Assembly: GCA_017514235.1 (NCBI GenBank)
Contig: JAFWKK010000042.1
Coordinates: 73,483-137,482, forward strand
Source: Kiritimatiellia bacterium
GTDB taxonomy: Bacteria > Verrucomicrobiota > Kiritimatiellia > RFP12 > UBA1067
Length of the DNA stretch: 64,000 bases
Reading direction: 5' to 3'
The notes below the pieces were generated by a model. The model ran no database searches, was not told the DNA's origin, and worked only from the letters and a program-made list of their open reading frames with translations. Below, piece after piece: positions 28,417 through 45,497 of this stretch. The first letter of the stretch is position 1. The number at the start of each line of letters is the position of its first letter. The position numbers and the translations under genes are program-made.

Positions 28417-28599
28417 AGCCTCCGCCACCGCCGTGTCGTTTAGACCTTCGGTCGCGGCAGATGCGGCGCGGCACGAAAGCGGGTCTAAAGCCCGACACGA
28501 AAAATCCCACGTTTCGCCTCCATTTCGCGAGATTTCGTGTACCGCGAAGGCGGTTTTTGTGTCCTGCGTACGGCGCACCCTGAAAGGGGCGGCGGTTGC

Positions 28600-28639: not shown

Positions 28640-28750
28640 GCAATCGCCGTACGTTGCCGCATGGCAACGCGCCGTTCGCAGGCGTTCGTGGTCGCGCGTA
28701 GCGCAATCATTCCACAATCGAGCATCATATTACTTGGAGTGACCTCCCCC

Positions 28751-28780
28751 TTGACTTGATGTAACCAATAGGTTAAAATA
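28751..28780 (+). promoter_or_regulatory. sigma70-like promoter TTGACT-N18-TAAAAT at the island boundary
   Basis: clean -35/-10 pair in an AT-rich stretch, pointing into the first four-helix-bundle element. Confidence 0.45.
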
Positions 28781-28834
28781 CGCGTCAGACGGTTCGGATG
28801 ATAGTCATGTCATCTATGGACAAAATAGCTATTG

Positions 28835-28872
28835 TGAGGTATTCGGCTGCATACCCCACGGGCGCGGAGCGT
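28835..28872 (+). repeat. 38-nt conserved leader motif, copy 1 (identical to 45029-45066)
   Basis: TGAGGTATTCGGCTGCATACCCCACGGGCGCGGAGCGT, exact match to copy 2; contains the small hairpin GGTAT-TCGGCTGC-ATACC. Confidence 0.85.
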
Positions 28873-28874
28873 AT

Positions 28875-28932
28875 GCTTAGTTGGAGGTAGGAGTTGGAGT
28901 TGGAGGTAGGAGTTGGAGGTAGGAGTTGGAGG
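28875..28932 (+). repeat. purine-rich tandem array (unit about TTGGAGGTAGGAG, about 4 copies) upstream of four-helix-bundle gene 1
   Basis: direct repeats read from the sequence; roughly complementary to the array at 29305-29435. Confidence 0.85.
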
Positions 28933-29304
28933 ATGGAGGGGCAGGATTTTCAGTACAGGAATTTGATTGTGTGGCAAAAGGCCATGCGGTTCTCTAAAGC
29001 CGTTTATGCGCTGATCAATCAATTCCCCGTAGCAGAGAAGTATGCGCTTTCTGATCAGGTTCGTCGTGCGGCAGTGAGTGTTCCTAGCAACATTGCGGAA
29101 GGATGTGGACGCGCCTCAAATCGTGACTATGCTCATTTCCTGTCGATCGCACGTGGTTCATTGTATGAAACAATGACACAGCTGGAATTGGCACAATCGC
29201 TTGGATACATTGATGCTATCAAAGATATCGAAGAGTTGGCCTCGGAGATAAGTCGTATGCTAACAACATTGATGAAGAAATACACGCCGCTCTCCAAATC
29301 CTAA
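28933..29304 (+). CDS. four-helix-bundle protein (23S rRNA intervening-sequence protein / Avd-like family), copy 1
   Basis: IVWQKAMRFSKAVYALINQFP..EKYALSDQVRRAAVSVPSNIAEGCGRASNRDYAHFLSIARGSLYE..TQLELA is the hallmark of this family; the ORF track extends the start into the repeat array via TTG, and I prefer the ATG at 28933. Confidence 0.8.
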   Translation: MEGQDFQYRNLIVWQKAMRFSKAVYALINQFPVAEKYALSDQVRRAAVSVPSNIAEGCGRASNRDYAHFLSIARGSLYETMTQLELAQSLGYIDAIKDIEELASEISRMLTTLMKKYTPLSKS

Positions 29305-29435
29305 CTCTACCTCTCCCCTCCAACTCCACCTCTCCCCTCCAACTCCACCTCTCCCCTCCAACTCCACCTCTCCCCTCCAACTCCAACTCTCTCCTCCAAC
29401 TCCAACTCCAACTCTTTTCTCCAACTCATCTCCCC
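29305..29435 (+). repeat. pyrimidine-rich tandem array (unit about CTCCACCTCTCCCCTCCAA, about 4 copies, then CTCCAACTC variants) downstream of four-helix-bundle gene 1
   Basis: direct repeats; reverse-complement related to the upstream array (TTGGAGG versus CCTCCAA). Confidence 0.85.
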
Positions 29436-29945: not shown

Positions 29946-30000
29946 GCCCAGTGGTGTGTGCAGAATTTGCACATGCCACTATTCACGGTGCTGTTATCTG

Positions 30001-30054
30001 AAGAGTGTCCAATATCACCAACTCACTAACTCACCAACTCCCCCACTTCTATCC
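30001..30054 (+). repeat. orphan pyrimidine-rich short repeats (CCAACTCA-type) directly upstream of the wzx-1 start
   Basis: CACCAACTCACTAACTCACCAACTCCCCCACTTCTATCC-ATG; same flavour as the downstream arrays of the four-helix-bundle elements. Confidence 0.5.
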
Positions 30055-31608
30055 ATGTCCCCGAATCGCAGGATATTCCTGAACATCGTTGCCACGTACG
30101 GACGGAGTCTGTACACGCTGGTGGTAGGATTGTTCTGCGGTCGGTGGACGCTGATGGCGCTGGGGGAGGTCGATTACGGACTCATGGGAGTCGTTGGCGG
30201 ACTGATTGCCTTCGTGCAGTATTTCGACAGCATCTTGGCGAGTGCAATCGGAAGGTTCTTCGCCATTGCGGTCGGCGAAGGGAAGGCCGACCGGAAATCA
30301 GGCATTGAATCCGGCCGCAAGTGGTTCACTACAGCGGTGGTGATCCAAACGGCATTGCCGACTTTTCTTCTCATAACGTTCTATCCGGTCGGGGAGTGGG
30401 CCGTCAGGCATTTTCTGACGATTCCGCCGGACAGGGTTCAGGCGTGCGTGTGGGTGTGGAGATTCGTGTGCCTGTCAGGATATTTAGGCATGCTGACGAT
30501 GCCGTTCCGTTCCATGTACATGGCGCATCAATATATTGCGGAGCTTACATTTTATTCTTTTATGACTACTACGTTTAACGCCTGTTTTCTCTATTACATG
30601 GTAACGCATCCCGGCGTTTGGCTGGCCAAGTTCGCGTTCTGGCAATGTCTGCTTTCGATGTTGCCCGAATTGATCATCGCAATTAGGGCATATTTCCTTT
30701 TTCCGGAATGCAGAGTGGTAAGGCGGCACATTAGATGCTGGTGCAACATCAGGGCGATGGCGGGTTTTTCGCTGTGGACGGCAATCGGTACGCTGGGTGT
30801 CATTCTCCGCGGGCAGGGAATATCCATTCTCGTCAACAAGATTTATGGCTCGCGAGTCAATGCCGGCGTAGCGGTCGGTTATTCGCTTTCTAATCATTGC
30901 AACTCATTGACGGATAGCATGTTCAACGTATTTTCCCCTGCCATCTACAACGCCTGGGGTGAGAAAAATTACGACAAGGCGCGCAGCATGGCCTACCAGA
31001 TATGCAGGGTCGGCACGTTGTTTCTTCTTGTTTTCGCGCTTCCGCTTTCACTGGAAGTTGACGAGGTGCTGCGATTGTGGCTTAAGAATCCCCCGCAATA
31101 TGCCGCTGGGATCTTTCTTTTTGTCATGGCGTCAACGGTAATCGACAAGATGGCGGCCGGCCACATGATATGTGTCAGTGCCAGCGGCAAGGTCGCCGGA
31201 TACCAATCGTTTCTTGGCACGACGCTGATTTTGACGTTGCCGCTCGCATGGTTGCTTGTAAAGCTCGGCATGGGCGTATATTCCGTGGGTTGGGCGCTGG
31301 TGGCGACGATGGCGGTTTGTTCTTCGGGGCGGATTTGGTTCGCGAGACGGCTTGTAGGCATGAGCGGACGATACTGGATACGGAGTGTCGTCGTCCCGCT
31401 TTCGGGGGTTGTCGTTCTGTCTCTTTGCGTGGGGTCCTTGCCTCGATTTTTTCTGTCGGCCTCCCTTGCGAGAGTCTGTTTCACGGTGGGGGTCGTCGAA
31501 TTTTTCATGATTCCATTTTCATGGTTCTTCGTCTTGAGCGGCTCCGAGCGCGCTTTTGTGGTGTCGAGGGTTAATGCTGTCGTTTCAAAAATGAGGAGAA
31601 CGTGCTAA
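30055..31608 (+). CDS. polysaccharide biosynthesis protein / Wzx-like flippase (MOP superfamily), paralog 1
   Basis: about 14 predicted TM helices; N-terminal 60 aa nearly identical to the paralog at 35171. Confidence 0.65.
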   Translation: MSPNRRIFLNIVATYGRSLYTLVVGLFCGRWTLMALGEVDYGLMGVVGGLIAFVQYFDSILASAIGRFFAIAVGEGKADRKSGIESGRKWFTTAVVIQTALPTFLLITFYPVGEWAVRHFLTIPPDRVQACVWVWRFVCLSGYLGMLTMPFRSMYMAHQYIAELTFYSFMTTTFNACFLYYMVTHPGVWLAKFAFWQCLLSMLPELIIAIRAYFLFPECRVVRRHIRCWCNIRAMAGFSLWTAIGTLGVILRGQGISILVNKIYGSRVNAGVAVGYSLSNHCNSLTDSMFNVFSPAIYNAWGEKNYDKARSMAYQICRVGTLFLLVFALPLSLEVDEVLRLWLKNPPQYAAGIFLFVMASTVIDKMAAGHMICVSASGKVAGYQSFLGTTLILTLPLAWLLVKLGMGVYSVGWALVATMAVCSSGRIWFARRLVGMSGRYWIRSVVVPLSGVVVLSLCVGSLPRFFLSASLARVCFTVGVVEFFMIPFSWFFVLSGSERAFVVSRVNAVVSKMRRTC

Positions 31609-32615
31609 TGTTCAAGGATTTTTTCAGGGTTGTTTTGCGTCCGTTTCGCATGGCTTGTGGGGCGTTATTGAGATATTTGCACGTTCGGCGGTTGTTCAGG
31701 TATGATCGCTTGCGGTTCATGAAGAATTCGGGCACGTTCGGAACTGGGAAGAAGCGGGAATACGTGCAGAAGGAAAAAATCATCATGGGGTATCATGTGT
31801 TGGAGAAAGGGTTGACAATGCCATCCTGTCGCTTGGGTTTTGGCCGCGAAGCTGTTTTAGATCTCATGCATGCGATTAGCGAATATGAAAATGACTTCGG
31901 GAAATCTGACGGGCAAGTGGATCATGCGTCTAGGTGCGTCAAGGCATATCTTCATCTTCATGAAGATGAACAGTATGACATGGCTGCCGACGCAGGCTTT
32001 TGGAATGCAGTAAAGGATTTTTGCGATGCGAGGAGCGGGGCGCCTGCCCAGATGATGAAATTCGACAGGGATGATTTCTTTGGCCAAGTTAATTCCCCGT
32101 TCGAGGTTTTTGCAAAATCAAGGCATACGGTAAGACACTTTGCGGGGACGGTTTCAGATGAGACCATTGAGAAAGCTGTGGATTTGGCGAGGACATCTCC
32201 TTCGGCGTGCAATAGGCAATACGTTAGAGTCCACTGCTTGCGAGACCACAAGTTGCATGAGAAAATATATAAGTTGCAAAATGGGAATCGGGGATTTGCC
32301 TCGGCAGCGGACAAATTGCTGATAGTGACTTCTGATCTTAATGGGTTGCGGTGGCATGAAGAGCGGAATGATGTCTTCACTAATGCCGGTATCTTCATAA
32401 TGAATCTCATGTATGCATTGCATTATAACCGCTTGGGGTGCTGTGTCTTAAACTGGTCTGTGTCACCAGACTCTGACAAGCGATTGAGAGGCATAATACC
32501 ATTAAAAGAGTCAGAGACCGTTGTCGCCTTGATAGCAGTCGGCCATCTTCCAGACGACTTTCTTGTGGCGGCTTCTCCTAGGAAACCTCTGCAGGAAGTC
32601 CTTGTCTGGCATTAA
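31608..32615 (+). CDS. nitroreductase-family domain protein (N-terminal unknown domain)
   Basis: C-terminal SRHTVRHF...SPSACNRQ nitroreductase motifs; ATG overlaps the wzx-1 stop (TAATG). Confidence 0.55.
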   Translation: MFKDFFRVVLRPFRMACGALLRYLHVRRLFRYDRLRFMKNSGTFGTGKKREYVQKEKIIMGYHVLEKGLTMPSCRLGFGREAVLDLMHAISEYENDFGKSDGQVDHASRCVKAYLHLHEDEQYDMAADAGFWNAVKDFCDARSGAPAQMMKFDRDDFFGQVNSPFEVFAKSRHTVRHFAGTVSDETIEKAVDLARTSPSACNRQYVRVHCLRDHKLHEKIYKLQNGNRGFASAADKLLIVTSDLNGLRWHEERNDVFTNAGIFIMNLMYALHYNRLGCCVLNWSVSPDSDKRLRGIIPLKESETVVALIAVGHLPDDFLVAASPRKPLQEVLVWH

Positions 32616-32642
32616 TCCTGATCCGTCTACATATAGCGGCTG

Positions 32643-33782
32643 ATGAAATCCATAGGCATAGTTACGCTAGGCGACTGCTTTCTGCTAGGCAATTACGGGA
32701 CATTTCTCCAGCACTTGTCGTTAAGGCGATTTGTCGAAGGTCTTGGTTATCGATGTGGGCGCATTCTGCGCAAGAGCGACAGCCCGTCAAGAGCCGTAAC
32801 CGTCTTTCGGATAGTTAAGCGGTTGTTGTCAATTCCTTGGCATGTCTTTCGTATGGGGGCTAGCATTTCAGACGAATTGCGAATCCAAACGTGTTGTGCA
32901 CGGCAGATGGCATTGTTTAGGCGCGATTATGAGAGGTTGCTTGGGGGGGGCGGGCAGGAAGTGTCTGTCGATAGGTGCGATGGGATTATAATAGGGGGTG
33001 ACCAGGTTTGGAATGATGCTGCTGATCTGGTATTTGGGATAGGCCATGGAGAGGGTTGCAAAGTTATCTGCTATGCTGCAAGTGCGGACTGGGTGCAAGC
33101 GTCTGGAGATACAAGGTGGCTGGATAAGGCGCGCAGGGAACTTCCTGGATTTGAAGCCATATCTGTGCGCGAAGATGCTGGTGTCAAGTTCCTTAATGAG
33201 GAAATTGGATTTCATAAAGAAATCGTTCGTGTCTGCGATCCGGTGTTTTTGAACAACAAAGAGTTCTATTTCAATTTGGTGTCAAATGAAAAGATTCTAA
33301 AAAAGCCAACATTGCTGTGCTATCTCTTGAACATACGGGAGTCAAGGGATTTCTCCATGGAATTTTATAAAAGCGTCGCCGATAGTCTTGGCGTCGACTT
33401 GAAGATTGTATGCATACAGGGAGCAGAGCGATATTTGAAACTGCGATACCAAACTATACCTTCTCCATGTGATTACATAAGAATGTTTAGGGATGCGGAA
33501 TATGTAATCACAAATTCATTCCATGGCGTGTGTGTTTCGTTACTGTTCGGGCGGCAGTTCGTTTGTCTTAAGCAAAGGGAAATCTCCAATTCAAGTCAGA
33601 ACATTCGAAGTATGGAGTTGCTTGGGCGTCTTCATCTTGAGAGTAGGATTTGCGATATCGGTAGTCAAAAGGAATCTTTGTTTGCTTTGCTGAAGACTCA
33701 AATTGATTTTAAATGTATTGATGTTGCGTTGGACGAAGAAAGAAAGTTCTCGGCAGAATGGCTAAGGCAGGCATTGCAATGA
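32643..33782 (+). CDS. polysaccharide pyruvyl transferase family protein
   Basis: N-terminus KSIGIVTLGDCFLLGNYGTFLQ matches the PS_pyruv_trans start (compare the paralog at 40758). Confidence 0.65.
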   Translation: MKSIGIVTLGDCFLLGNYGTFLQHLSLRRFVEGLGYRCGRILRKSDSPSRAVTVFRIVKRLLSIPWHVFRMGASISDELRIQTCCARQMALFRRDYERLLGGGGQEVSVDRCDGIIIGGDQVWNDAADLVFGIGHGEGCKVICYAASADWVQASGDTRWLDKARRELPGFEAISVREDAGVKFLNEEIGFHKEIVRVCDPVFLNNKEFYFNLVSNEKILKKPTLLCYLLNIRESRDFSMEFYKSVADSLGVDLKIVCIQGAERYLKLRYQTIPSPCDYIRMFRDAEYVITNSFHGVCVSLLFGRQFVCLKQREISNSSQNIRSMELLGRLHLESRICDIGSQKESLFALLKTQIDFKCIDVALDEERKFSAEWLRQALQ

Positions 33783-34798
33783 CACCGTTCTTCTCCATCG
33801 TCATTCCGGTCTACAACGTAGCGCCGTATCTGCGCGAGTGTCTTGATTCCGTCTTGGCGCAGACGTTCGCGGACTGGGAGGCGCTCTGCGTTGATGACGG
33901 TTCGACTGACGGTTCCGGGGCAATCCTCGACGAGTATGCGGCCAAAGATTCGCGAATCAAGGTGCTTCACACTGGGAATCGCGGAGTAAGCGCGGCAAGA
34001 AACTCCGGCATTGACGCGGCAAGCGGGGAGTACGTGACCTTTCTCGATGGAGACGATGCATATGAACGTTTTTGGCTCGAGAGCTTTTATGGGCTGATCA
34101 AGGAAACAGGGGCGGAACTTGTCCGGCTGCGAGTGAAGTTCTGGAATGGCGGGGCGCATGAAAGCGGTCTGGCGGTGGACCGTCCGCATCGAGCCTGCTT
34201 CGTCGGGGATGAAGTCGTGAGTTGGGGGTGCCCGACCTACTCGCTGGAGGGGTGGTCGTGGTTGAATGCCATAAGGAGATCGTGCTTGAACGGTGCGGTA
34301 CGGGTAAGGTTCCCGGTCGGCATGAAGTTCATGGAGGACAATGTTTTCATGATGAATGCGTTGCCTCATGTTCATGCGGCTTGCCAAGGCGAGGTCTCCG
34401 GTTATCTTTACAGGCAGCGGGCGACGTCCGTTTGCCTGGCAAGGAAAAGCGCCCAGGTGGTTGTTCGCCTCTTCGATGAAACTGTCCCGCTGTTCGCTGC
34501 GATGTCTGCGGCGAACCGGAAGTGTCTTTCGGGAATGCTCGGACGGTCGGTCCTTTATTGGTGTGAACGCAGGGACAGGGACGAAATCGGCGGCGCTGCA
34601 ATCGTCCGTGCCCGTATCGTGGCCGCCATGAAAGATTCGATGTTCCATGTTTCGGACATGCCGGTGAGGTGGCGGCTTGGGTTCGTGGCGATGTTGCATT
34701 TGCATTCGCTTCTTGTCATGGATTTGCTGTTGTTCCTGCAGCGTACCTGGGGTTGTGCAAGACGATTGCGGAAAGGTATAATACGCGGCAAACGTTAA
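33779..34798 (+). CDS. family 2 glycosyltransferase (conserved 5' module)
   Basis: FSIVIPVYNVAPYLRECLDSVLAQTFADWEALCVDDGSTDGS; 5' about 130 nt nearly identical to the GT2 genes at 41875 and 45498 and to the pseudogene at 43126. Confidence 0.8.
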   Translation: MTPFFSIVIPVYNVAPYLRECLDSVLAQTFADWEALCVDDGSTDGSGAILDEYAAKDSRIKVLHTGNRGVSAARNSGIDAASGEYVTFLDGDDAYERFWLESFYGLIKETGAELVRLRVKFWNGGAHESGLAVDRPHRACFVGDEVVSWGCPTYSLEGWSWLNAIRRSCLNGAVRVRFPVGMKFMEDNVFMMNALPHVHAACQGEVSGYLYRQRATSVCLARKSAQVVVRLFDETVPLFAAMSAANRKCLSGMLGRSVLYWCERRDRDEIGGAAIVRARIVAAMKDSMFHVSDMPVRWRLGFVAMLHLHSLLVMDLLLFLQRTWGCARRLRKGIIRGKR

Positions 34799-34868
34799 GG
34801 AGGGGCCTTGGAATGTGGTATGCTTTGTTGGCTTAGGGTGACGATGGCGGCATGGAGAATGGTATAAT
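34775..34868 (+). promoter_or_regulatory. two extended -10 boxes (GGTATAAT at 34775-34782; TGGTATAAT at 34860-34868)
   Basis: same promoter flavour as the core genes; positioned before the 80-aa ORF and wzx-2. Confidence 0.4.
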
Positions 34869-34886
34869 AAATATGAGCAGTAACGT

Positions 34887-35129
34887 ATGAGCAGTAACGA
34901 TTTTTCTGAGAATCTCTTCTGGGATGCCGACCTGTCCGATCTTGATCTAGCCCGGAACAGGCGGTATGTCGTACAGCGAGTCATGGAGCGCGGAACCGTC
35001 ATCGACCTTTGTAAGATTTTTCATCTCTATGGCATGACTGGCGTTGTCGAAACGGCGAAAACGCTTCGTGCGCATGACCAGAGGGCCTTGTCTTTTGTCG
35101 CCTGTCGCGAATTTGTAAAGGGCATATAG
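34887..35129 (+). CDS. hypothetical 80-aa protein
   Basis: ORF placed between the two polysaccharide modules and preceded by promoter motifs; no family recognised. Confidence 0.35.
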   Translation: MSSNDFSENLFWDADLSDLDLARNRRYVVQRVMERGTVIDLCKIFHLYGMTGVVETAKTLRAHDQRALSFVACREFVKGI

Positions 35130-35130
35130 A

Positions 35131-35170
35131 ACTCACCCTCTCCCAACTCATAACTCACAACTTCCTCTCC
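35131..35170 (+). repeat. orphan pyrimidine-rich repeats (AACTCA-type) directly upstream of the wzx-2 start
   Basis: GAACTCACCCTCTCCCAACTCATAACTCACAACTTCCTCTCC-ATG. Confidence 0.45.
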
Positions 35171-36733
35171 ATGTCCCCTAACCGTCGAATCTTCTTGAAC
35201 ATTGTTGCCACGTACGGGCGGAGTTTGTATGCGTTGGTCGTTGGCTTGGTCACTGCAAGGTGGACATTACAGGCTTTGGGAGTTGTTGACTATGGACTTA
35301 TGGGAGTTGTAGGTGGTCTTACTGGGTTTATTTCTTTCTTTAACGGAATCTTGGCGGCTGCTGTCGGTCGGTTTTATGCAATATCGGTTGGCAAGGCGAG
35401 TGTAAAAGGACACGAACTTGAGGGACTGGATGAGTGCCATAAATGGTTTTCCACTGCTGTATTTTTGCACATGCTTGTGCCGACGATTTTAATTGTTGTT
35501 GGCTATCCTGTTGGCGTATGGGCTGTTAGAAACTTTCTAACCATTCCACCTGATCGTGTCTCTGATTGTGTTTGGGTATTTCGCTTTATGTGTGTGTCGT
35601 GTTATATATCAATGTTGACAGTTCCCGTAAATGCGATGTATACGGCCAAACAGTATATTGCCGAATTGACGATTTATTCTGTTGTTACAACGACGCTAAA
35701 TGCACTTTTCTTATATTATATGGTCTCGCATCCAGGCGTATGGCTGGCCAAGTTTATGTTTTGGACTTCGCTTCTGTCCATCGCACCAAATGTGATTATT
35801 TTCTTGCGTGGAGTTTTTCTGTTTAAGGAATGCAGGTTAATTCCCAGGTATCTGTTATCGTGGGCGCGAATCAAGCAGTTGGTATATTTTGTGGGAATGT
35901 GGACCTGCGGTGGTACAGCATGGCTGTTGAGAGTTCAGGGAATCAACATTCTCATTAACAAGTATTTTGGGGCAAAAGTGAATGCGGCTATGGCTATTGC
36001 GAATAGTGTAAATGCGCACACTAGAAGTTTGTCAGGATCCATGCTCGGTGCTTTATATCCTGCCATAACATCTGCCTATGGCGCAGGAGACCTTGAGCGC
36101 ATGCGAGCGTTGGCGTATCGTGCATCCAAACTTTCAGTGCTTTTTGTTTTGATTTTCATGTTGCCCATTGCGTTGGAGTTGGAGGAAGTTCTACGCGTTT
36201 GGCTGATAAACCCGCCTGAATATGTTTATGGGCTGTGTCTTTTGGTCTTTGCGGTAACTATTACTGATCAGATTACTATTGGCCAAATGATGGCAATAAA
36301 TACCAGAGGCAAGATACTTTGGCCCACTGTTTTCCAAAGTGGAAGTCTTCTTATGGGATTCCCACTTGCATGGTTGTTTTGCTGGGTAGGATTTGGGGTG
36401 TATTCTGTGGCGGTCGCATTGTTGATTTCGATGTTCAGCTGTTCGGCCTGGAGGATATGGTTTGCGCGTGGTTTGGTCTCCATGTCTTCTTGGTACTGGA
36501 TAAAGAGAATATTGATACCAGTAGTCCTTTGCGCATTGATTAGCGCGGTAATCGGATGGATGCCTCGTCTGTTCATGCCGCCATCACTTTATCGGATTGT
36601 TGTTGCGGGACTTGTCAGCGACGTGATTCTTCTTGCGTTAGCTTGGCTTGTTTTGCTTGATGGAGACGAACGAGAATTCCTAAGAGGGCGGTTTAGCCTA
36701 TTGTACAGAAACTTAAAGGCGAGAATGAAGTAA
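35171..36733 (+). CDS. polysaccharide biosynthesis protein / Wzx-like flippase, paralog 2
   Basis: MSPNRRIFLNIVATYGRSLY... same N-terminus as the 30055 gene; multi-TM. Confidence 0.65.
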   Translation: MSPNRRIFLNIVATYGRSLYALVVGLVTARWTLQALGVVDYGLMGVVGGLTGFISFFNGILAAAVGRFYAISVGKASVKGHELEGLDECHKWFSTAVFLHMLVPTILIVVGYPVGVWAVRNFLTIPPDRVSDCVWVFRFMCVSCYISMLTVPVNAMYTAKQYIAELTIYSVVTTTLNALFLYYMVSHPGVWLAKFMFWTSLLSIAPNVIIFLRGVFLFKECRLIPRYLLSWARIKQLVYFVGMWTCGGTAWLLRVQGINILINKYFGAKVNAAMAIANSVNAHTRSLSGSMLGALYPAITSAYGAGDLERMRALAYRASKLSVLFVLIFMLPIALELEEVLRVWLINPPEYVYGLCLLVFAVTITDQITIGQMMAINTRGKILWPTVFQSGSLLMGFPLAWLFCWVGFGVYSVAVALLISMFSCSAWRIWFARGLVSMSSWYWIKRILIPVVLCALISAVIGWMPRLFMPPSLYRIVVAGLVSDVILLALAWLVLLDGDEREFLRGRFSLLYRNLKARMK

Positions 36734-38119
36734 ATGCTTCGGGCCCGTCGTGTATCTCATATGAAACGAATTGAACTTTATAGAATGGTCGTAGAGGGTG
36801 ATAGAATCCTTTACGAAATAGTGCAGGATGCTGGCGTAGGGTTGTTGAAACAGGACCGCGTGAAGTTGTTCGTTCGCTTTCACAATTTAGAAAGCGTACA
36901 TGTTGACTTGAACAAGATTCCACAATCAATCCTCGCAGTTCCAATTTCGCTGTACTTGTTGCCACTTACATATTTCTACAAAATAGAGCTAGTCTTGCCG
37001 ACGATTGACAAGATGCTCTATGGGCGGTTGCCTGATATATATGCCGCATACTCAAATGTCTATGGACCTTTCAAAGAAGAGTGGCGTGGCAAATTGACCG
37101 TTAAAACCATTGCTGACACCCCAGCAAAAGACGATGAGGCGTATGATAAAGTCGTCTTCTTTTCAGGAGGGGTTGATGCATGTAGCGCAGGAATCAACAA
37201 TCCAGGACGTAAGACGCTTTTGGTAAGTATTCCCGATATAGAGATACTTGCAAAGAACGAAGGACCTCTGCGAGAAGAGAAATTCTCGCTGATAAGGGCA
37301 TTCTCAAGTGTCATTAATAGTGATTGGGTCTTGATATCGAATAACTTCAATGCTGCGCTTTTTAATGATCATGAGATAAAAAAGGAGTTGCGCACACAAA
37401 AGGGACTTTGTAGTCCCGCGTTTGAATTTGATGGTTGGTTGGGAATGAAATTTCTTGCCAATATGTGTTGCGTTGCTCCGCTTGCGTATGCTTTGGGGGT
37501 TAAAGATCTTATTATGGGGTCGGGTTTTTCACAGATAGAAGACAGATACAATCTTAATGACGATGGAGCACATCCATCGCTTTCAAATTCTATTGCATTC
37601 TCAGGAGTAAGATTTGGTGATCAGGATGGATTATATACACGCCGAACAATGAAGGTGAGTAATATAATCAAATGGTGTAACTCACATGGTAAGAGAGTAA
37701 AACTGTGGACTTGTTTTTGCGATAAGTCGTCACAATGTGGGGTCTGTCATAAGTGTGTTCGTACCCAACTTAATATCCTTTGTGCTGGTGAGAATCCAAA
37801 AAACTGGGGCTTTGAAAATTTTGATGAAAAGAAATTCTCACACTTCATGTATTGGTATAGATATTACGAAAAGAACCCTTGCTTTCTCTGGGATGTAGTT
37901 GATGCGATAGACACAAAACGTGGTTATGTGTGTTGCAATCACATGTTGCATTGGCTTAAGCGCATTGGCTACAAGGAGTATATGAAGAGAGCCAGGTCAC
38001 GTATAGTGTGGCTTAATCGGTTTAGACGAATTATAAGGATTTTCTATGTTCACAAGTATCCCCATTATATGAAGCGGATATGTGAACGACTTGTTAAGTG
38101 CTTGAAGTCAGAGCGATAA
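36734..38119 (+). CDS. hypothetical protein with PP-loop-like SGGxD motif and C-terminal Cys cluster
   Basis: VVFFSGGVDACSAG resembles the adenine-nucleotide alpha-hydrolase PP-loop; CFCDKSSQCGVCHKC cluster; possibly N-acetyl-sugar amidotransferase-like, family uncertain. Confidence 0.4.
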   Translation: MLRARRVSHMKRIELYRMVVEGDRILYEIVQDAGVGLLKQDRVKLFVRFHNLESVHVDLNKIPQSILAVPISLYLLPLTYFYKIELVLPTIDKMLYGRLPDIYAAYSNVYGPFKEEWRGKLTVKTIADTPAKDDEAYDKVVFFSGGVDACSAGINNPGRKTLLVSIPDIEILAKNEGPLREEKFSLIRAFSSVINSDWVLISNNFNAALFNDHEIKKELRTQKGLCSPAFEFDGWLGMKFLANMCCVAPLAYALGVKDLIMGSGFSQIEDRYNLNDDGAHPSLSNSIAFSGVRFGDQDGLYTRRTMKVSNIIKWCNSHGKRVKLWTCFCDKSSQCGVCHKCVRTQLNILCAGENPKNWGFENFDEKKFSHFMYWYRYYEKNPCFLWDVVDAIDTKRGYVCCNHMLHWLKRIGYKEYMKRARSRIVWLNRFRRIIRIFYVHKYPHYMKRICERLVKCLKSER

Positions 38120-38148
38120 TCGAAGTCAGAGGTATAAGGAGAGATGGC

Positions 38149-39927
38149 ATGAGCAAACATTATTACACTGATGAGAAAAATGCGCAGATTGTGATTGCGT
38201 TATTGAAGGCGCATGGAATACGGGACATGGTAATAAGTCCAGGCGCAACGAATGACGTATTTGTCTTGAGTGTACAGGGCGATCCTGATTTCAACTTGTA
38301 TTCTGCCGTCGACGAACGTCATGCGGGATATCTTGCGTGTGGCATTGCACAGGAGAGCGGGAAGCCTGTTGTAATAAACTGCACAGGAGCGACTGCAAGT
38401 CGGAATTACATGTCGGCGCTAACGGAGGCGTACTACCGCAAACTCCCGATTCTTGCAATTACCTGCTCTCAGCATTCATCGCACATCGGTAATATGTACC
38501 CGCAGATGACGGACAGAATCCATCTGCCATCAGATATCGTGAACCTTTCCGTCCAGTGCCCCATACCTCATACGTACGAGGAGGTTCGCGACTGCGAATT
38601 GAAGGTCAATCGTGCAATTTTGGAACTTACGCATCGTGGCGGTGGCCCGGTTCACATAAACCTTGAAACGTCATTCAACGGGAATTACTCAGTCGAAACA
38701 CTGCCAAAAGTGCGGAAGATTGGCAGGGTGATGGCGACGGATGCCGAATGGCCTTCAATTGATGTGGGGGCGAAGGTTCTTGTTTGGATAGGTTCGCACA
38801 AACCTTTCACGGAAAAAGGAATGGCGGCTTTGACATCTTTTGTGAAATCCAACAATGCCGTCGTCATAGGTGACATCACAAGCAATTATGACGGATCGAT
38901 TCGTGCGTCTGAGCTGTGTTATCAGTATGGTTCAAAGAACAATCCGGATTTCGCCAAGCTTAAGCCGAATCTCATCATACATATTGGTGAAATCTCCGGT
39001 GATTATGCTACGTTCGGATGGCTCAAAAACACCGCTCCTGTATGGCGTGTCAGTGAAGACGGGCAATTGCGAGATTTTCTTTGTGGTCTTGCAATGGTCT
39101 TCGAAATGCCGGAAGAAACGTTTTTCTCTCATTATTCATATGAAAAATCCACAGTAGGAGACTATGCTGACTGTTGGAAGTCTAATACTGCTGAAGTCGC
39201 TGCGGTGAAGACGGATTTGTTTTTTTCTGCATTGTGGATTGCCCAAACACTTTCTCCCAAAATCCCAGAAGGAAGCAATTTGCATCTTGGGATTCTCAAT
39301 CCGTTGCGTTGCTGGAACATGACTGGCGTAAATGTAACGCATGGTTTCTCTACTGTCGGAGGATTTGGAATTGACGGGGGAACGTCAGCCATGATCGGTA
39401 CATCATTGGTTAACCCTTGTCGTCTTAATTTTGGCGTGTTTGGAGATTTGTCGTTCTTTTACGATTTGAACTCCATTGGCAATCGCTATGTTGGAAGAAA
39501 TCTTCGAATACTTGTCATCAATAATGGTGAAGGTGGCGAATTTCTTGTGCCTGGAAATGTTTATGAAAATGCGAATTGTGGGGAGAGGGTTCATGACTTT
39601 ATTTCTGCAAGGGGGCATTTTGGCGCGAAGTCAACCACTTTGTTGAAACATTTTGCGGAAGACCTCAGATTTAAGTATCTGTCAGCAGCGTCCAAGGAAG
39701 AGTTCTTGTCTGTATGTGAAGACTTTGTGAAACCAGAAATAGACAGGTCAATAATCTTTGAATGTTTTACTTCCGCAGAGGAAGACAGAAAAGCTCTTAA
39801 TGCTGTGCGACACAAGGCCGTGTATGTACATGGAGATAACGGCGTTGTTTCGGGGTTGAAGTCCGTCGCAAGAGCGGTGTTGCCGACAGGAGTAAAAAAT
39901 ATGTTGAAAGCTGCCATAAAGGGATGA
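38149..39927 (+). CDS. thiamine-pyrophosphate-dependent enzyme (acetolactate-synthase-like three-domain architecture)
   Basis: N-terminal TPP_enzyme_N motifs (ISPGATN, GYLACGIAQESGKP, CTGATASRN); length about 590 aa; C-terminal TPP-binding GDLSFFYDLNS..N. Confidence 0.7.
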   Translation: MSKHYYTDEKNAQIVIALLKAHGIRDMVISPGATNDVFVLSVQGDPDFNLYSAVDERHAGYLACGIAQESGKPVVINCTGATASRNYMSALTEAYYRKLPILAITCSQHSSHIGNMYPQMTDRIHLPSDIVNLSVQCPIPHTYEEVRDCELKVNRAILELTHRGGGPVHINLETSFNGNYSVETLPKVRKIGRVMATDAEWPSIDVGAKVLVWIGSHKPFTEKGMAALTSFVKSNNAVVIGDITSNYDGSIRASELCYQYGSKNNPDFAKLKPNLIIHIGEISGDYATFGWLKNTAPVWRVSEDGQLRDFLCGLAMVFEMPEETFFSHYSYEKSTVGDYADCWKSNTAEVAAVKTDLFFSALWIAQTLSPKIPEGSNLHLGILNPLRCWNMTGVNVTHGFSTVGGFGIDGGTSAMIGTSLVNPCRLNFGVFGDLSFFYDLNSIGNRYVGRNLRILVINNGEGGEFLVPGNVYENANCGERVHDFISARGHFGAKSTTLLKHFAEDLRFKYLSAASKEEFLSVCEDFVKPEIDRSIIFECFTSAEEDRKALNAVRHKAVYVHGDNGVVSGLKSVARAVLPTGVKNMLKAAIKG

Positions 39928-39931
39928 TGTT

Positions 39932-40756
39932 ATGATGGATTTCTTAAAACGAATTGTCAAAGGCATAACAGGAACTGTCAGAAATGCTCCTGCGCGGATT
40001 CCTGTATATGTCCCTGTGTTGCAAAGCGAACTTTTGAAGGGGCGTGCAGCATTGATTACTGGTGGCAGTTGTGGGATTGGTTATGCAATTGCAGAAGCAT
40101 TTCTACAGGCGGGCGCCAAGGTGATAATCTCAGGACGAAATGAAGAAAAGTTAAAAGAGGCGGTTTCCAAATTGTCTTGTAAGGGATATGCTTCATGTAT
40201 ACAAATGGACAATACGAAGCCGGCTTCGTTTGCAGGGATTTTGTCAGATGTGGATGCTTTTGATATCCTTGTAAACAATGCTGGATATGTTGGTGGTGGT
40301 GTTTTCGGCAGCACTTCAGAATCAGAATATGACGCAGTACTTGATACGAATCTTAAGGGAGCCTACTTTCTTGCACAAGAAGTGGCATCTATTTGGAAAA
40401 GCAAAGGAGTGCGGGGTAATATCCTTAATATATGTTCTGCCTCCAGCCTTCGCCCAGGAACCTCGCCATACATTATTTCTAAATGGGGAATGCGGTCGCT
40501 CACGGTTGGGATGGCGAAGCAATTGATAAAACATGGCATTGTCGTGAATGGCCTTGCGCCAGGAGTCACTAATACGGAGCATTTTACTCATGGTGAAAAA
40601 AACATCGGGAAGCCAAGCAATCCGTCTGGACGTATGGTGACAAAAGAAGAAATTGCAAACATGTCTGTAATACTTGTCAGCCCACTCTGTCGGATGGTGG
40701 TGGGCGACATACTTTATATGACTGGTGGTGGTGCTATTATAACATTGGACGATTGA
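39932..40756 (+). CDS. SDR-family oxidoreductase
   Basis: ALITGGSCGIGYAIA Rossmann motif and a YxxxK-type region. Confidence 0.8.
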   Translation: MMDFLKRIVKGITGTVRNAPARIPVYVPVLQSELLKGRAALITGGSCGIGYAIAEAFLQAGAKVIISGRNEEKLKEAVSKLSCKGYASCIQMDNTKPASFAGILSDVDAFDILVNNAGYVGGGVFGSTSESEYDAVLDTNLKGAYFLAQEVASIWKSKGVRGNILNICSASSLRPGTSPYIISKWGMRSLTVGMAKQLIKHGIVVNGLAPGVTNTEHFTHGEKNIGKPSNPSGRMVTKEEIANMSVILVSPLCRMVVGDILYMTGGGAIITLDD

Positions 40757-40757
40757 T

Positions 40758-41873
40758 GTGAGAATTGCAATTTTAACTTTTCACCGCGCTTATAACTGTG
40801 GTGCCATGCTTCAGGCATGGGCACTCAAGACAGTGTTGGAGCGCATGGGTCACGTTGTAGAGTTTCCAATATGCAATCATGTAGGTGAGACGAGGCGTTG
40901 GTTGTATGATTGGGTGAACAAAGAAAAGCATGGCATTCAACTCATAAGATCATTGCTGGGGCGGACGTTTGTTAATGGTATGTCCATCCCGGCAGAAGAT
41001 ATATTGCGCTGGAGATATAGGAGATTCCGCAAGGCCAATTTTAATGAACGGATTTGTTTCCCCGAAGATTTGGGTAAGCATTATGACCTTGTTGTCGTAG
41101 GAAGCGATCAGGTGTGGAGCGAAAGACATTCGGACGGAGATGCTCCTGTGTTTTTTGCAGAGAACATTTTAGGCGATGTCCGCAAGATTGTATATGCGGC
41201 AAGCTATGGCGATAAACCATTGGATGATGCGTTGGTTAGCCGTGTTGTGGCTGCGGTGGAAAGATTCTCTGCCGTGTCTGTCAGAGAGCCAATGGCAAAA
41301 CAGCAATTGGGGCAATACACGCGAAAGCAAATTGATACGACACTTGATCCGACGCTGCTATTGGATGGTAAGGATTACGAGGCAATAGCAACGAGCCCAA
41401 GATTTGTGCGTAAACCATATTTATTCATGTACACGCTTTCCACCGCTCCGTTTTTTGTCAATACGGCAAAAACATTGTCGGATAGACTGGGGGTAAGATG
41501 CATAATAACGCCATGTTACCAATATACGAGGTATGCAGCGCCAAAAGGGTTGACATATAGCATCTCACCTGATAGGCTTGTGGGATTGGCACGCGAAGCC
41601 AAATATGTCTTAGCAGGCTCTTTTCATGGAACGGTTATGGGGGTTATATTTAAAAAGCCATTTTTGTCGTTACGGGCATGCTGTGATAATTATGAGTCAA
41701 GACCTGCTGCGTTGTTGAATGTGATGGGTTGTAGTAATCGGCTTGTTAACCCAGAAACTTCGATAGATGCGATGGAAGCGTTGCTGAGGACAAATTTACC
41801 ATCTACGGCATACGATAAACTATATGCGAAGCGCACGGAGTCTTTAGAATGGTTAAGAAGGGCAATCGGATAG
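40758..41873 (+). CDS. polysaccharide pyruvyl transferase
   Basis: MRIAILTFHRAYNCGAMLQAWAL is the canonical PS_pyruv_trans N-terminus. Confidence 0.8.
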   Translation: MRIAILTFHRAYNCGAMLQAWALKTVLERMGHVVEFPICNHVGETRRWLYDWVNKEKHGIQLIRSLLGRTFVNGMSIPAEDILRWRYRRFRKANFNERICFPEDLGKHYDLVVVGSDQVWSERHSDGDAPVFFAENILGDVRKIVYAASYGDKPLDDALVSRVVAAVERFSAVSVREPMAKQQLGQYTRKQIDTTLDPTLLLDGKDYEAIATSPRFVRKPYLFMYTLSTAPFFVNTAKTLSDRLGVRCIITPCYQYTRYAAPKGLTYSISPDRLVGLAREAKYVLAGSFHGTVMGVIFKKPFLSLRACCDNYESRPAALLNVMGCSNRLVNPETSIDAMEALLRTNLPSTAYDKLYAKRTESLEWLRRAIG

Positions 41874-41874
41874 T

Positions 41875-42879
41875 ATGATAGCCTTTTCAATTGTAATTCC
41901 AATATATAATGTTGTGCCCTATCTGCGCGAGTGCTTGGATTCTGTCTTGGCGCAGACGTTCACCGATTGGGAAGCGATTTGCGTTGACGACGGTTCTACC
42001 GATGGTTCAGGCTCGATTCTCGATGAGTATGCTGTTTGTGATCGGCGCTTCCGCGTTATACACCAGACCAACGCTGGTGTCAGCGTGGCCCGAAATGTCG
42101 GCATGTTAAATGCGGTTGGCGGATACATTACATTTCTGGACGGAGATGATGTGTATGACAAGAATTGGTTGACTGAGGCGGCCAACATAATTGCAAAGAC
42201 AGGTGCCGACGTTGTTCGCATGCGGTTTGTTAAGTTCCATGACAAATTGCCGACGGGAACATTGAGCAGTGGCTGTAAGATATATGATGGAGTCGAAGAG
42301 GTTAGGAAATGGGGGATTCGTGAATTTGCAGAGGGTGGTTATTCTTGTCTGGTTTTCATGAAGCGAGACAAGTTGTCTATGGCTGCTGGGTATGAGTTCC
42401 CTGATGAAGTGGATTTTATGGAGGACAATGTTTTCATGCTTCGCAACCTTCCTTCTTTTAGTAAGGCAGTGCAAAGTGAGTTCGCTGGATATTATTATCG
42501 CGTTAGATCAAATTCGGCTTCTCGTGGTTTGCTGACGGTTGAGTCTGTCGATAGGTTAATGAAAGAGTTTGCAGGGTTGTATGATAGATTCGGGTCTGAC
42601 ATTGCATCGGGCATTGCCAATATGCTACAGACTGTAGCTTTTTCATGGCGAGAGCGGGGCGAGAGAAAGCGCAGGGGCGCAGATAGAAGCGTGGCGATTA
42701 TGTTTCAGCGGATGTTCGACGGCGGCTGTTTTGACACGAACCGTATCCCTTTTCGATGGCGACTTGGATTCGAAGCGATAATTCGCTTCCACAGCTTTTG
42801 CCTCATGGATGTCCTTTATGGGCTTCACCGGTTGTGGGGACGAGTCAGGATGGGCAAACAGCTCCCTTCGTGGGCATGA
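41875..42879 (+). CDS. family 2 glycosyltransferase (conserved 5' module)
   Basis: FSIVIPIYNVVPYLRECLDSVLAQTFTDWEAICVDDGSTDGS. Confidence 0.8.
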   Translation: MIAFSIVIPIYNVVPYLRECLDSVLAQTFTDWEAICVDDGSTDGSGSILDEYAVCDRRFRVIHQTNAGVSVARNVGMLNAVGGYITFLDGDDVYDKNWLTEAANIIAKTGADVVRMRFVKFHDKLPTGTLSSGCKIYDGVEEVRKWGIREFAEGGYSCLVFMKRDKLSMAAGYEFPDEVDFMEDNVFMLRNLPSFSKAVQSEFAGYYYRVRSNSASRGLLTVESVDRLMKEFAGLYDRFGSDIASGIANMLQTVAFSWRERGERKRRGADRSVAIMFQRMFDGGCFDTNRIPFRWRLGFEAIIRFHSFCLMDVLYGLHRLWGRVRMGKQLPSWA

Positions 42880-42957
42880 TGTTTTGTTGTTATGCGCGGA
42901 CATCCGCTGATTGAGAGTTTGGTGTAAGAAGTTTGTAAGTTGGGGAGTGGGGAGTTT

Positions 42958-42974
42958 GAACCACGAAATACACT
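42958..42974 (+). repeat. 17-bp direct repeat TGAACCACGAAATACAC (copy 1; copy 2 at 43422-43438)
   Basis: exact duplicate flanking the GT2 pseudogene fragment. Confidence 0.7.
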
Positions 42975-43125
42975 AAATACACGAAAGAGAAAATCAACCC
43001 CTAGGATTATGTTGCACGGACATAATGTTTTTCGGCATAATATTCGATTCAAAGGCAGAAACGAAGATTAAACACCATTAAATTAATGGCGGTTAAATAA
43101 TGAGGTTTTTGAGTATTGCCGTTTT

Positions 43126-43412
43126 TTTCCATAATCATCCCGGTCTATAACGTCGCGCCCTATCTGCGCGAGTGCCTGAATTCCGTCTTGTCGCAGACGT
43201 TCGCCGATTGGGAGGCGATCTGCGTTGACGATGGTTCGACCAACGGGTTCTGGCTCGATTCTTGATGAATATGCTACATGTGACTGGTGATTCCGTGTCA
43301 TCCACCAGCTCAACGCCGGTGTTAGCGCGGACAGAAATGCCGGCATGTTAAATGCGGTTGGCGAATACATTACATTTCTGGACGGAGATGATGTGTATGA
43401 TCCGGGCGTCAG
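43126..43412 (+). pseudogene. GT2 glycosyltransferase remnant (5' module only, frameshifted, no start codon)
   Basis: nucleotide-level match to the GT2 5' module (PFFSIIIPVYNVAPYLRECLNSVLSQTFADWEAICVDDGST) then frameshift and stop; truncated at the second TGAACCACGAAATACAC repeat. Confidence 0.7.
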
Positions 43413-43421
43413 GGGTCGGTC

Positions 43422-43438
43422 TGAACCACGAAATACAC
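43422..43438 (+). repeat. 17-bp direct repeat TGAACCACGAAATACAC (copy 2)
   Basis: see copy 1. Confidence 0.7.
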
Positions 43439-43519
43439 GAAAAGGGGAAGATCGAGAGTTAGATAATGGCGTAAAATCAGCGATTGACAAGTCGGATTTC
43501 GTTGTGATATAACTCTTGT

Positions 43520-43590: not shown

Positions 43591-43602
43591 GTTGCCAAGG
43601 CG

Positions 43603-43666
43603 GCGGATTTTACGGCGGAAGTGGAAAAACGGCGGCGTTTTTTACGGTTGCGCCGTAAAATCCGCC
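43603..43666 (+). promoter_or_regulatory. perfect 16-bp inverted repeat GGCGGATTTTACGGCG ... CGCCGTAAAATCCGCC (plus a partial third copy) upstream of the ATPase gene promoter
   Basis: seen directly; possible operator or terminator hairpin. Confidence 0.5.
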
Positions 43667-43687
43667 GTTGCGTTAGGGCGGCTGATA

Positions 43688-44864: not shown

Positions 44865-44972
44865 GTGGAAGAGTGGGGGATTTTGAGCCGTGACGGGGAA
44901 ATCTGCGCCGCGATTCCGTGCGTCGCTTCCGCCCGGTGGTTCGAGAATTGATTCACATGGCGCGGGAAAAAA

Positions 44973-44981
44973 TGGTATAAT
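44973..44981 (+). promoter_or_regulatory. extended -10 TGGTATAAT upstream of four-helix-bundle element 2
   Basis: about 45 nt upstream of the conserved 38-nt leader. Confidence 0.45.
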
Positions 44982-45028: not shown

Positions 45029-45066
45029 TGAGGTATTCGGCTGCATACCCCACGGGCGCGGAGCGT
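45029..45066 (+). repeat. 38-nt conserved leader motif, copy 2
   Basis: exact match to 28835-28872. Confidence 0.85.
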
Positions 45067-45104
45067 CTTGTCAGTAGTCGGGGGTCAGGGGCCAGAGGAT
45101 AGAG
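45067..45104 (+). repeat. purine-rich short array (GGGGGTCAGGGGCCAGAGGATAGAGG) upstream of four-helix-bundle gene 2
   Basis: complementary in character to CCTGACTCC repeats downstream. Confidence 0.55.
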
Positions 45105-45461
45105 GTGGTTAAGACTTATAAAGAGTTAGTGGCTTGGCAAAAGGGGATGTCGCTTGTGAAAGCCGTCTATGCTTTAGTGAAACGGTTCCCAAAAGTTGAG
45201 CAATATCGACTTGTTGACCAGTTGACGCGTGCTGCAGTCAGTGTGCCATCTAACATTGCAGAGGGATTCGGTAGGGCTACCAACAAAGATTTCGCACACT
45301 TCCTGTCGCAGGCTCGAGGCTCGCTGTTTGAAGTAGAGACGCAGTTGTTGATAGCAAAGGATCTTGGATTTGTTGGTGATGTAACGTCAGAGCTTGAACT
45401 ATCTTCCGAACTTGGGAAGATCCTAAATGGTCTCATACGTAAACTACTCCCTGTCCCCTAA
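45105..45461 (+). CDS. four-helix-bundle protein (23S rRNA IVS protein / Avd-like family), copy 2
   Basis: LVAWQKGMSLVKAVYALVKRFPKVEQYRLVDQLTRAAVSVPSNIAEGFGRATNKDFAHFLSQARGSLFEVETQL; GTG start. Confidence 0.8.
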   Translation: MVKTYKELVAWQKGMSLVKAVYALVKRFPKVEQYRLVDQLTRAAVSVPSNIAEGFGRATNKDFAHFLSQARGSLFEVETQLLIAKDLGFVGDVTSELELSSELGKILNGLIRKLLPVP

Positions 45462-45497
45462 CTCCTGACTCCTGTCTCCTGACTCCTGCCCCCTAAA
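45462..45497 (+). repeat. pyrimidine-rich short array (CTCCTGACTCCTGTCTCCTGACTCCTGCCCC) downstream of four-helix-bundle gene 2 and directly before the GT2 start
   Basis: seen directly. Confidence 0.6.

Follow-up and report, generated by a model that had tools for sequence, protein, structure and literature searches.

The 64,000-nt stretch of DNA analyzed here, referred to as the window, comes from a Kiritimatiellia bacterium (contig JAFWKK010000042.1, positions 73,483 to 137,482) and contains two copies of a 38-nt motif, TGAGGTATTCGGCTGCATACCCCACGGGCGCGGAGCGT, at 28835–28872 and 45029–45066. We consider it probable that this motif is an ops/opsX-type element of gut and rumen Kiritimatiellae, at which RNA polymerase would pause and a UpxY-like NusG paralog (NusG_SP) would be recruited. 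As judged from the comparisons described below, its most likely role would be processive antitermination on long, low-GC, horizontally acquired gene clusters.

The original prediction had described the two copies as an exact duplication in the same orientation, and this was borne out, as both lie on the + strand with no mismatches. There was no third copy in the window at up to three mismatches (none is expected from 100 shuffles), and the covariance model of the motif family recovered just the two known copies there, at 69.1 bits each. A promoter had been placed shortly upstream of each copy; both promoters were confirmed as strong ones of the sigma-70 type, and the motif was found to start 55 nt past the −10 box of promoter 1 (28751–28779, + strand; TTGACT-17-TAAAAT, a 10/12 match) and 47 nt past that of promoter 2 (44952–44981, + strand; TTCACA-18-TGgTATAAT, an 11/12 match with an extended −10 marked by the upstream TG). 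Promoter 1 is the first promoter of a low-GC polysaccharide island. The proposed recruitment element would occupy approximately +49 to +86 of the transcript in copy 1 and +41 to +78 in copy 2. The GGTAT/ATACC hairpin was likewise present, extending to TG-a-GGTAT / ATACC-c-CA, and each copy was followed by a purine-rich array and an open reading frame (ORF) matching Pfam PF05635 (23S rRNA IVS protein / four-helix bundle). We also looked for longer identical flanks, which the prediction had named as a sign of an ordinary duplicated segment. The upstream flanks of the two copies gave no alignment, and on the 3′ side there was only weaker similarity for 9 nt more (47 nt at 91%).

Searches beyond the window showed that the motif belongs to a conserved family. 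When a single genome of each species was scanned for the 3′ 19-mer of the motif, 42 loci with 32 full motifs were obtained, which came from Kiritimatiellae, from metagenome-assembled genomes (MAGs) labelled Verrucomicrobia or Lentisphaerae, and from a few bins that were apparently mis-assigned. Metagenomes were scanned with the central 18-mer, and the resulting counts are lower bounds. We set aside 45 matches as chance, since they lacked the hairpin half of the motif and came from GC-rich unrelated genomes, mostly from ferredoxin genes in which GCATGCCCCACGGGCGCG represents the codons for 'ACPTGA'. After their removal, at least 128 copies in at least 126 unique contexts were left. When diverged copies were included, the collection comprised at least 141 copies in at least 100 loci (507 kb in total) from rumen and gut metagenomes and Kiritimatiellae MAGs, and the 38-mer was identical in at least 79 of those copies. 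Conservation was 87% or higher at each of motif positions 1–38 and both flanks were degenerate, so that the block conserved throughout the family has exactly the 38-nt boundaries that had been read from the window. The copy number and contexts found in these scans, together with the identical boundaries, uphold the earlier suggestion of a conserved 5′-leader element or protein-binding site as opposed to chance or ordinary duplication. A covariance-model search of Rfam, which had also been proposed, gave no match to any of the 4227 families, whether over the whole window with gathering thresholds or, in 28700–28960, with E values of up to 10.

Motif contigs were also present in MAGs labelled as other phyla, i.e. 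L039 (Bacteroidaceae label), L030 (Ruminococcus) and L002 (Eggerthellaceae); here and below, L numbers denote loci. L030 is near-identical to the Kiritimatiellae-type contig L008, so that mis-binning is likely, and in L039 a GGGATAT variant occurs five times or more. In a viral contig collection there was one exact match to the motif tail, at 1605–1627 of L175 (an uncultivated virus genome, UViG, of IMG/VR; 199-kb contig). This contig could be bacterial, either misclassified or carrying a prophage.

The position and orientation of the motif were also conserved. For nearly every copy, a strong −10 box (TATAAT, TAAAAT, TAAACT or TACACT) ended 57–78 nt before motif position 15, and many copies had in addition a TTGACA −35 box at 17-nt spacing. 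In loci with two to five copies, all copies were on a single strand in 29 out of 29 cases with a median spacing of 2.2 kb, and the ORFs downstream of the copies ran in the same direction as the motif. The cargo outside the window included polysaccharide genes (rfbB-like dTDP-glucose dehydratase, rfbD-like dTDP-rhamnose reductase and UDP-glucose dehydrogenase-like proteins, all judged by sequence), LicD, a thiamine pyrophosphate (TPP) decarboxylase, acyltransferase_3 and GNAT-methyltransferase genes, defence-like genes (AAA_15/AAA_21 ATPases, a DUF4062-HATPase_c_4 protein, an N6 DNA methylase of the N6_Mtase family and a zeta toxin), and large secreted proteins without a Pfam family. This range indicates that promoters with the motif belong to variable islands for surface polysaccharides and defence-like functions, and not to one pathway.

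In several genomes the promoter, leader and motif form a unit of approximately 130 nt that has an abrupt 5′ boundary some 10 nt before the −35 box, ends 5 nt past the motif, and recurs before unrelated genes. The earlier proposal that the motif could be the end of a larger repeated unit did not hold within the window, whereas in other genomes the motif is the 3′ end of this promoter-leader cassette. The island behind the motif is strain-variable. In the closely related strain L173, where PGI is 97% identical to that of the window, promoter 1 is conserved and the promoter, the motif and the start of the four-helix-bundle element are arranged as in the window. The homology between the two sequences has a sharp 5′ edge, some 10 nt before the −35 box. 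The motif is identical at 38 of 38 positions, whereas the 85-nt leader upstream of it contains about 10 substitutions and the cargo is different. In a third strain, L171 (PGI 96% identical), there is no GH28 gene, no island and no motif. In L070 (five copies in 9.3 kb), L037 (three copies in 1.8 kb), L015, L113 and L115, promoter-motif cassettes recur at intervals of 0.5–3 kb and are always co-directional, so that nearly every gene or gene pair has its own copy. A second conserved hairpin, CACATATTGCGATATGTGACGTACC, was observed between consecutive cassettes, just 3′ of the motif in L012, L018, L032, L074 and L136 and some 100 nt before the next cassette in L001 and L008.

The motif is composed of a hairpin half and a tail. 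Positions 1–24 read TG-a-GGTAT, loop, ATACC-c-CA, with a stem of 7–8 bp and a loop of 4–8 nt that is mostly TCGGCTGC and otherwise CGTGC, CGCGC, GTGC, CTGC, TCTGC, CCCGC or CTTCGTGC. In the window this half, TGaGGTAT-TCGGCTGC-ATACCcCA, lies on the + strand at 28835–28858 in copy 1 and at 45029–45052 in copy 2, and it is a candidate for both an RNA pause hairpin and an upstream-duplex recognition region. When 47 distinct variants were aligned, 94% of the stem cells were paired, six substitutions were of the G-U type, and compensatory double changes were found at two pairs (U6-A19 to C-G and G4-C21 to A-U), compensatory changes being seen in L019, L120, L166 and L170. The diverged type in L166 and L170, GTCGC-TAT-TCGGCTGC-ATA-c-GCGAC, has both G2-C23 and G4-C21 flipped to C-G, and its stem was recovered by RNAfold. 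The paired cells, the compensatory changes and the predicted fold together indicate that the hairpin is real. The dominant conservation signal is that of the primary sequence. A leader peptide was considered and rejected, since one frame opens with TGA, the loop has frame-breaking indels of 1, 3 and 4 nt, most substitutions would be non-synonymous in either open frame, and the upstream ATGs stand in differing frames.

In B. fragilis, UpxY proteins are NusG paralogs that are recruited at multipartite elements of approximately 40 bp, termed opsX, in the leaders of capsule operons (Saba et al. 2024, PMC11685472). In the upstream part of each opsX an RNA pause hairpin is encoded, and class-1 opsX contains in addition a non-template-DNA hairpin with the consensus 5′-YGCGNAGCR, whose GCG..AGC stem resembles that of the E. 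coli ops hairpin GCGGTAGC (PMC11685472). The NGN domain recognises this upstream part in the form of duplex DNA (PMC11685472), and such reading would explain why the stem and loop of the present motif are conserved as sequence.

The tail of the motif, CGGGCGCGGAGCGT, contains at positions 29–37 the sequence CGCGGAGCG (28863–28871 in copy 1 and 45057–45065 in copy 2, + strand), which is an exact match to YGCGNAGCR and has the same GCG..AGC stem as E. coli ops (ops12, GGCGGTAGCGTG). G33, A34 and G35 were invariant in 47 of 47 variants. The YGCGNAGCR pattern occurs in the window at about 2.3e-4 per position, and we estimate the chance of finding it within a given 38-mer at less than 1%. Moreover, its location at the 3′ end, behind the hairpin, and the length of the element are as expected from opsX. 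Diverged copies retained GCG-N(1-2)-AGC in the forms GCGGGAGC, GCGTGAGC, GCGAGAGC, GCGAAGC and GCGAAAGC, and the forms with a 2-nt loop, GCGGGAGC, GCGTGAGC, GCGAGAGC and GCGAAAGC, reproduce the E. coli architecture. At 7391–7444 of L022, the ops-like tail is duplicated in tandem (GGGCGCGGAGCGTTGC GGGCGCGGAGCGTTGC).

All ORFs of the collected DNA were searched by phmmer with E. coli NusG and RfaH as queries, and a NusG paralog of 163 aa with the Pfam domain PF02357 was found. Of the NCBIfam models, UpxY (NF033644) matched it best, at 81.9 and 83.7 bits, followed by RfaH (59), LoaP (44) and NusG (42), and its matches to RfaH and NusG in the PDB were distant. The family of this paralog has 859 members at E <= 1e-10, and one homolog is named 'UpxY family transcription antiterminator [Kiritimatiellae bacterium]' by NCBI. 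The paralog gene is genetically linked to the motif. In four related loci it immediately precedes a promoter that carries the motif: its end lies 222 nt before the motif in L026 and 180 nt before it in L005, and in L166 and L170 it is followed directly by the promoter and a diverged motif, to which L170 adds a PF05635 gene. In L003 the paralog gene is located 7 kb downstream of the motif. Three paralog genes were present in the 507 kb of motif-selected DNA, as compared with about 0.15 expected by a rough estimate for an unlinked single-copy gene in an assumed 3–4 Mb genome. No motif was found upstream of the paralog gene itself. A UpxZ-like partner was not seen beside it, and no search aimed at UpxZ was made.

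The resemblance to class-1 opsX of Bacteroides is close. In both cases an element of about 40 bp (here 38 nt) is multipartite, with a hairpin-encoding region followed by YGCGNAGCR, lies in sense orientation between the promoter and the genes of long polysaccharide (here also accessory) operons, within the transcribed 5′ leader, and is associated with a factor that scores best against the UpxY family. In Bacteroides, however, each locus has a distinct opsX and a locus-specific upxY-upxZ pair as its first two genes, whereas in Kiritimatiellae one near-invariant sequence is common to many loci, promoters and species, and the first ORF past the motif is a PF05635, biosynthetic or defence gene. The Kiritimatiellae also differ in that up to five copies occur within 9 kb, in that the paralog gene stands outside the operons, upstream of a motif-bearing promoter and without a motif of its own, in that defence-like genes form part of the cargo, and in their phylum, Kiritimatiellota as opposed to Bacteroidota.

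E. coli RfaH and ops (including the JUMPstart region, which lies upstream of polysaccharide clusters) share with the present case the use, here proposed, of one factor for many operons and a place in the leader of long, horizontally acquired polysaccharide or accessory operons. The non-template strand of ops carries a GCG..AGC hairpin followed by GT; the sequence of this core is also found on the non-template strand of the motif, it is kept in diverged copies, and some of these even have GCG-NN-AGC. On the other hand, E. coli ops is a self-sufficient 12-mer and the motif a bipartite element of 38 nt. The loop is G (or GG, TG, AG, A or AA) in place of GT, the flipped-out T6 to which RfaH specifically responds is missing, and E. 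coli ops occurs about once per operon, whereas the motif stands before every one or two genes in some islands. The Rfam search gave no match to the motif, and would cover JUMPstart if that family is among the 4227. LoaP of Bacillus and Thermoanaerobacter is another specialised NusG paralog that acts at a small 5′-leader hairpin in secondary-metabolite and polysaccharide operons. Recruitment of LoaP via a nascent RNA hairpin has been proposed (Saba et al., PMC11685472). This RNA hairpin would be read by the KOW domain of LoaP, whereas the tail of the Kiritimatiellae motif matches the DNA-hairpin consensus. By its NCBIfam scores, the Kiritimatiellae paralog is nearer to UpxY and RfaH than to LoaP.

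If the motif functions as such an element, RNA polymerase would start at the adjacent sigma-70-type promoter, transcribe approximately 40–55 nt and then enter the hairpin half and, after it, the tail. The nascent hairpin and the G-rich tail may together pause the polymerase, and in the open bubble the non-template strand would form the small GCG-G-AGC hairpin (positions 30–36). The NGN domain of the NusG paralog would recognise this structure and, probably, the duplex upstream of it from which the RNA hairpin is transcribed. The bound factor would be expected to travel with the polymerase and to make it resistant to pausing and to both Rho-dependent and intrinsic termination, the predicted result being full expression of the long, low-GC, foreign-looking clusters downstream. 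In this scheme, pausing, folding of the non-template strand, binding of the factor and antitermination are drawn from the analogy with known systems, and what was observed is the conservation of the motif, its place, direction and anatomy, its gene context and its linkage to the paralog.

Several observations weigh against this interpretation. With one copy per one or two genes, the motif is far denser than the sites of any known ops regulon. The NusG paralog is not encoded within the 64-kb window, its UpxY score of 82–84 bits is below the curated cutoff of 100 for NF033644, and among eight loci that were fetched via the paralog protein the motif was present in just two, both of the diverged type (there was none in L163–L165, L167 and L168, and the contig of L169 ends 150 nt past the gene). 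The predicted fold of the motif by itself is not more stable than those of shuffled sequences (z = +1.35), and with its leaders included there was no extra stability either (z from +1.35 to −0.95). Covariation is limited and confined to one short stem, since the element hardly varies. The base after T38 is T or A, while the E. coli consensus pause prefers G at +1. Finally, positions 15–32 were set by the search patterns for most copies, so that the conservation there is partly an ascertainment effect. When loci were searched with a 5′ anchor, positions 25–32 were seen to vary (CAGGCGTGG, CGCGCGCGG, CGGGGCGKG and others), and ATACCCCA and AGCGT were constant.

We see some chance, though not a large one, that the roughly 130-nt unit of promoter, leader and 38-nt ops-like sequence is a portable expression cassette heading nearly every gene cassette of the hypervariable polysaccharide and defence islands in gut Kiritimatiellae, that it provides NusG_SP-dependent protection of low-GC foreign genes from Rho or silencing, and that its invariant 38-bp core serves as a homology anchor for shuffling between loci, strains and species, by an integron-like logic, all three taken together. 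That the motif is primarily a DNA recombination or cassette-boundary site, with the 38-bp identity driving homologous or site-specific exchange, deletion or duplication of gene cassettes, including that of the 16-kb segment between the window copies, is quite unlikely in our view. Deletion or duplication of this segment had been suggested in the original prediction, and no support emerged for it as the cause of the motif's conservation. Its sharp 5′ and 3′ boundaries before unrelated genes, the dense co-directional copies in hypervariable islands, the different cargo behind the same cassette in different strains and the repeated GT2 gene segments of the window (described below) would all fit. 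However, there is no consistently adjacent recombinase, there are no terminal inverted repeats or target-site duplications, the fixed promoter distance and sense orientation would be needless for such a site, and conservation within the motif is strongest in the ops-like core. A mobile repeat resembling a miniature inverted-repeat transposable element (MITE) or a repetitive extragenic palindrome (REP) was not indicated, as cassette alignments contained no terminal repeats and the copies are promoter-proximal and in sense. Given the sharp boundaries and the cargo differences between strains, there is room for a secondary role of the motif in cassette exchange.

It is unlikely, in our estimation, that the element acts purely at the RNA level as a cis-regulatory leader, with a protein reading the nascent hairpin and the single-stranded tail and the non-template DNA not being read. 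Candidates for such a reader would be the KOW domain of a LoaP-type paralog, a NusA/NusB-type factor (nut/boxA) or another RNA-binding protein. The motif is indeed always transcribed and always in sense, its stem changes are G-U-compatible or compensatory, and the paralog has a weak match (44 bits) to LoaP, for which a nascent RNA hairpin has been proposed. These points are opposed by a fold no more stable than that of shuffled sequence, by primary-sequence conservation even in stem bases that are free to co-vary, by the exact match of the tail to the DNA-hairpin consensus, and by the lack of an Rfam family even at E up to 10. For a structured, riboswitch-like RNA, too, both excess stability and covariation beyond the one short stem were absent. 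A double-stranded operator, in which a dimeric repressor or roadblock would bind the inverted repeat GGTAT-N8-ATACC, would account for the inverted repeat, the strong primary-sequence conservation and the proximity to the promoter. We rejected a dimeric operator because copies that are conserved in other respects differ in the spacing of their half-sites (4 to 8 nt), a variation that such an operator would not allow. In addition, the stem pairs of the diverged type flip in a compensatory way, conservation is as high in the asymmetric 14-nt tail as in the repeat, and the motif is strictly strand-specific relative to transcription, all of which make an operator very unlikely. The original prediction had suggested that the motif could be shared by the four-helix-bundle elements, and it could then be a part or target of the array-flanked PF05635 element, e.g. 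a processing or binding site for the four-helix-bundle protein. Such an element stands behind both window copies and behind copies in L003, L045, L120, L170 and L173, in each case with the motif directly 5′ of the PF05635 ORF. Five of six PF05635 ORFs found by phmmer, in the DNA set before L170 and L173 were added, directly follow a motif, a figure that is biased as the loci were selected by the motif. A PF05635 ORF was found behind just 4 of the 124 copies with enough downstream sequence, and the covariance model detected no motif at the third four-helix-bundle element of the window (60864–61464). The association is real in the window and in certain other loci but not general, an obligate link was rejected, and it is highly improbable that the motif is a part or target of these elements.

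The reading of the motif as a NusG-paralog recruitment element would, as far as its sequence can tell, mean that an opsX-like architecture is used as an RfaH-like, one-signal regulon in a phylum without a described case. Within the searchable literature, we found no paper connecting Kiritimatiellae with NusG paralogs or UpxY, and none on the motif. To our knowledge, experiments have so far defined recruitment sites of specialised NusG paralogs in no more than a few Proteobacteria (RfaH/ops), the Bacillota (LoaP) and, since 2024, Bacteroides (UpxY/opsX). If the reading is correct, the GCG..AGC non-template-hairpin logic would extend to the Planctomycetes-Verrucomicrobia-Chlamydiae (PVC) superphylum, to which the Kiritimatiellota belong, and this would suggest that the logic is ancient or has been reinvented repeatedly. 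The system would then be a natural intermediate of the two best-studied ones, combining the Bacteroides-type architecture of about 40 bp with an RfaH-style shared signal that includes promoters of defence genes. In practical terms, the motif could serve as a precise sequence tag by which to locate where operons for surface polysaccharides and accessory functions begin in as yet uncultured Kiritimatiellae of the rumen and gut, and the motif and the 163-aa paralog would be a directly testable pair of site and factor.

The first 28.7 kb of the window is core genome with 62–67% GC, encoding mraZ/mraW/PBP, PGI, ExbB-ExbD-TonB and a GH28 protein, and an intrinsic-terminator-like site is located at 28541–28554. 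The PGI shares 96–99% identity with proteins from Kiritimatiellae MAGs, so that the window can be assigned to a Kiritimatiellae bacterium of the gut or rumen. From 28.7 kb to the end of the window, GC is 43–52% and all real genes are on the + strand; the break where the island begins is sharp, from about 64% to 45–52%. The functions encoded in this island concern polysaccharides and comprise GT2, pyruvyl transferases, a flippase-like protein, LicD, DegT, epimerases and a cytidylyltransferase. The co-directional genes behind copy 1 (29956–42879, + strand) encode a nitroreductase-like protein, two pyruvyl transferases, two GT2 proteins, a MatE-like flippase, a TPP enzyme and an SDR protein, and those behind copy 2 (45498–62921, + strand) encode GT2, an IspD-like cytidylyltransferase, an epimerase, LicD, a DegT aminotransferase and others. 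An AAA_14/DUF4143 ATPase gene (43704–44864) stands between the first gene block and promoter 2, and just upstream of it there is an inverted repeat with 29-nt arms and a 9-nt loop (43601–43667).

The 5′ 135–280 nt of a GT2 gene are present four times in the window at 60–86% identity (33785–34065, 41878–42158, 43119–43400 and 45501–45781). The copy at 43119–43400 contains no + strand ORF as long as 90 aa, resembles a gene fragment, and is flanked by GTTTGAACCACGAAATACAC repeats at 42954–42977 and 43419–43442. The GT2 repeats and the flanking GTTTGAACCACGAAATACAC suggest past recombination between modules.

Four-helix-bundle element 1 (28879–29430, + strand) consists of a purine-rich array (28879–28931), the PF05635 ORF (28933–29304; E = 1e-39) and a complementary C-rich array (approximately 29284–29430). 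It is the first cargo behind the motif and lies outside the motif family. Element 2 (45073–45497, + strand) has a purine-rich stretch, the PF05635 ORF (45105–45461; E = 2e-35) and a C-rich array (approximately 45448–45497). All three PF05635 ORFs of the window are preceded by a purine-rich tandem array and followed by a complementary one that is C-rich and G-poor. The two arms could pair as a long stem of the transcript, as in rRNA intervening sequences, and an unpaired C-rich arm would resemble a Rho loading site. C-poor stretches (at most 2 C in 40 nt) were found within 140 nt 3′ of 34 out of 114 motif copies, as compared with 4% at random positions in the same loci. They are typically arrays of the TAGTGG/TAGTTG type and were seen in L003, L010, L039, L061, L087, L111, L145 and others, as well as at 28873–28931 of the window. 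Arrays of this type also precede ORFs that do not encode four-helix-bundle proteins, e.g. the zeta-toxin gene in L039.

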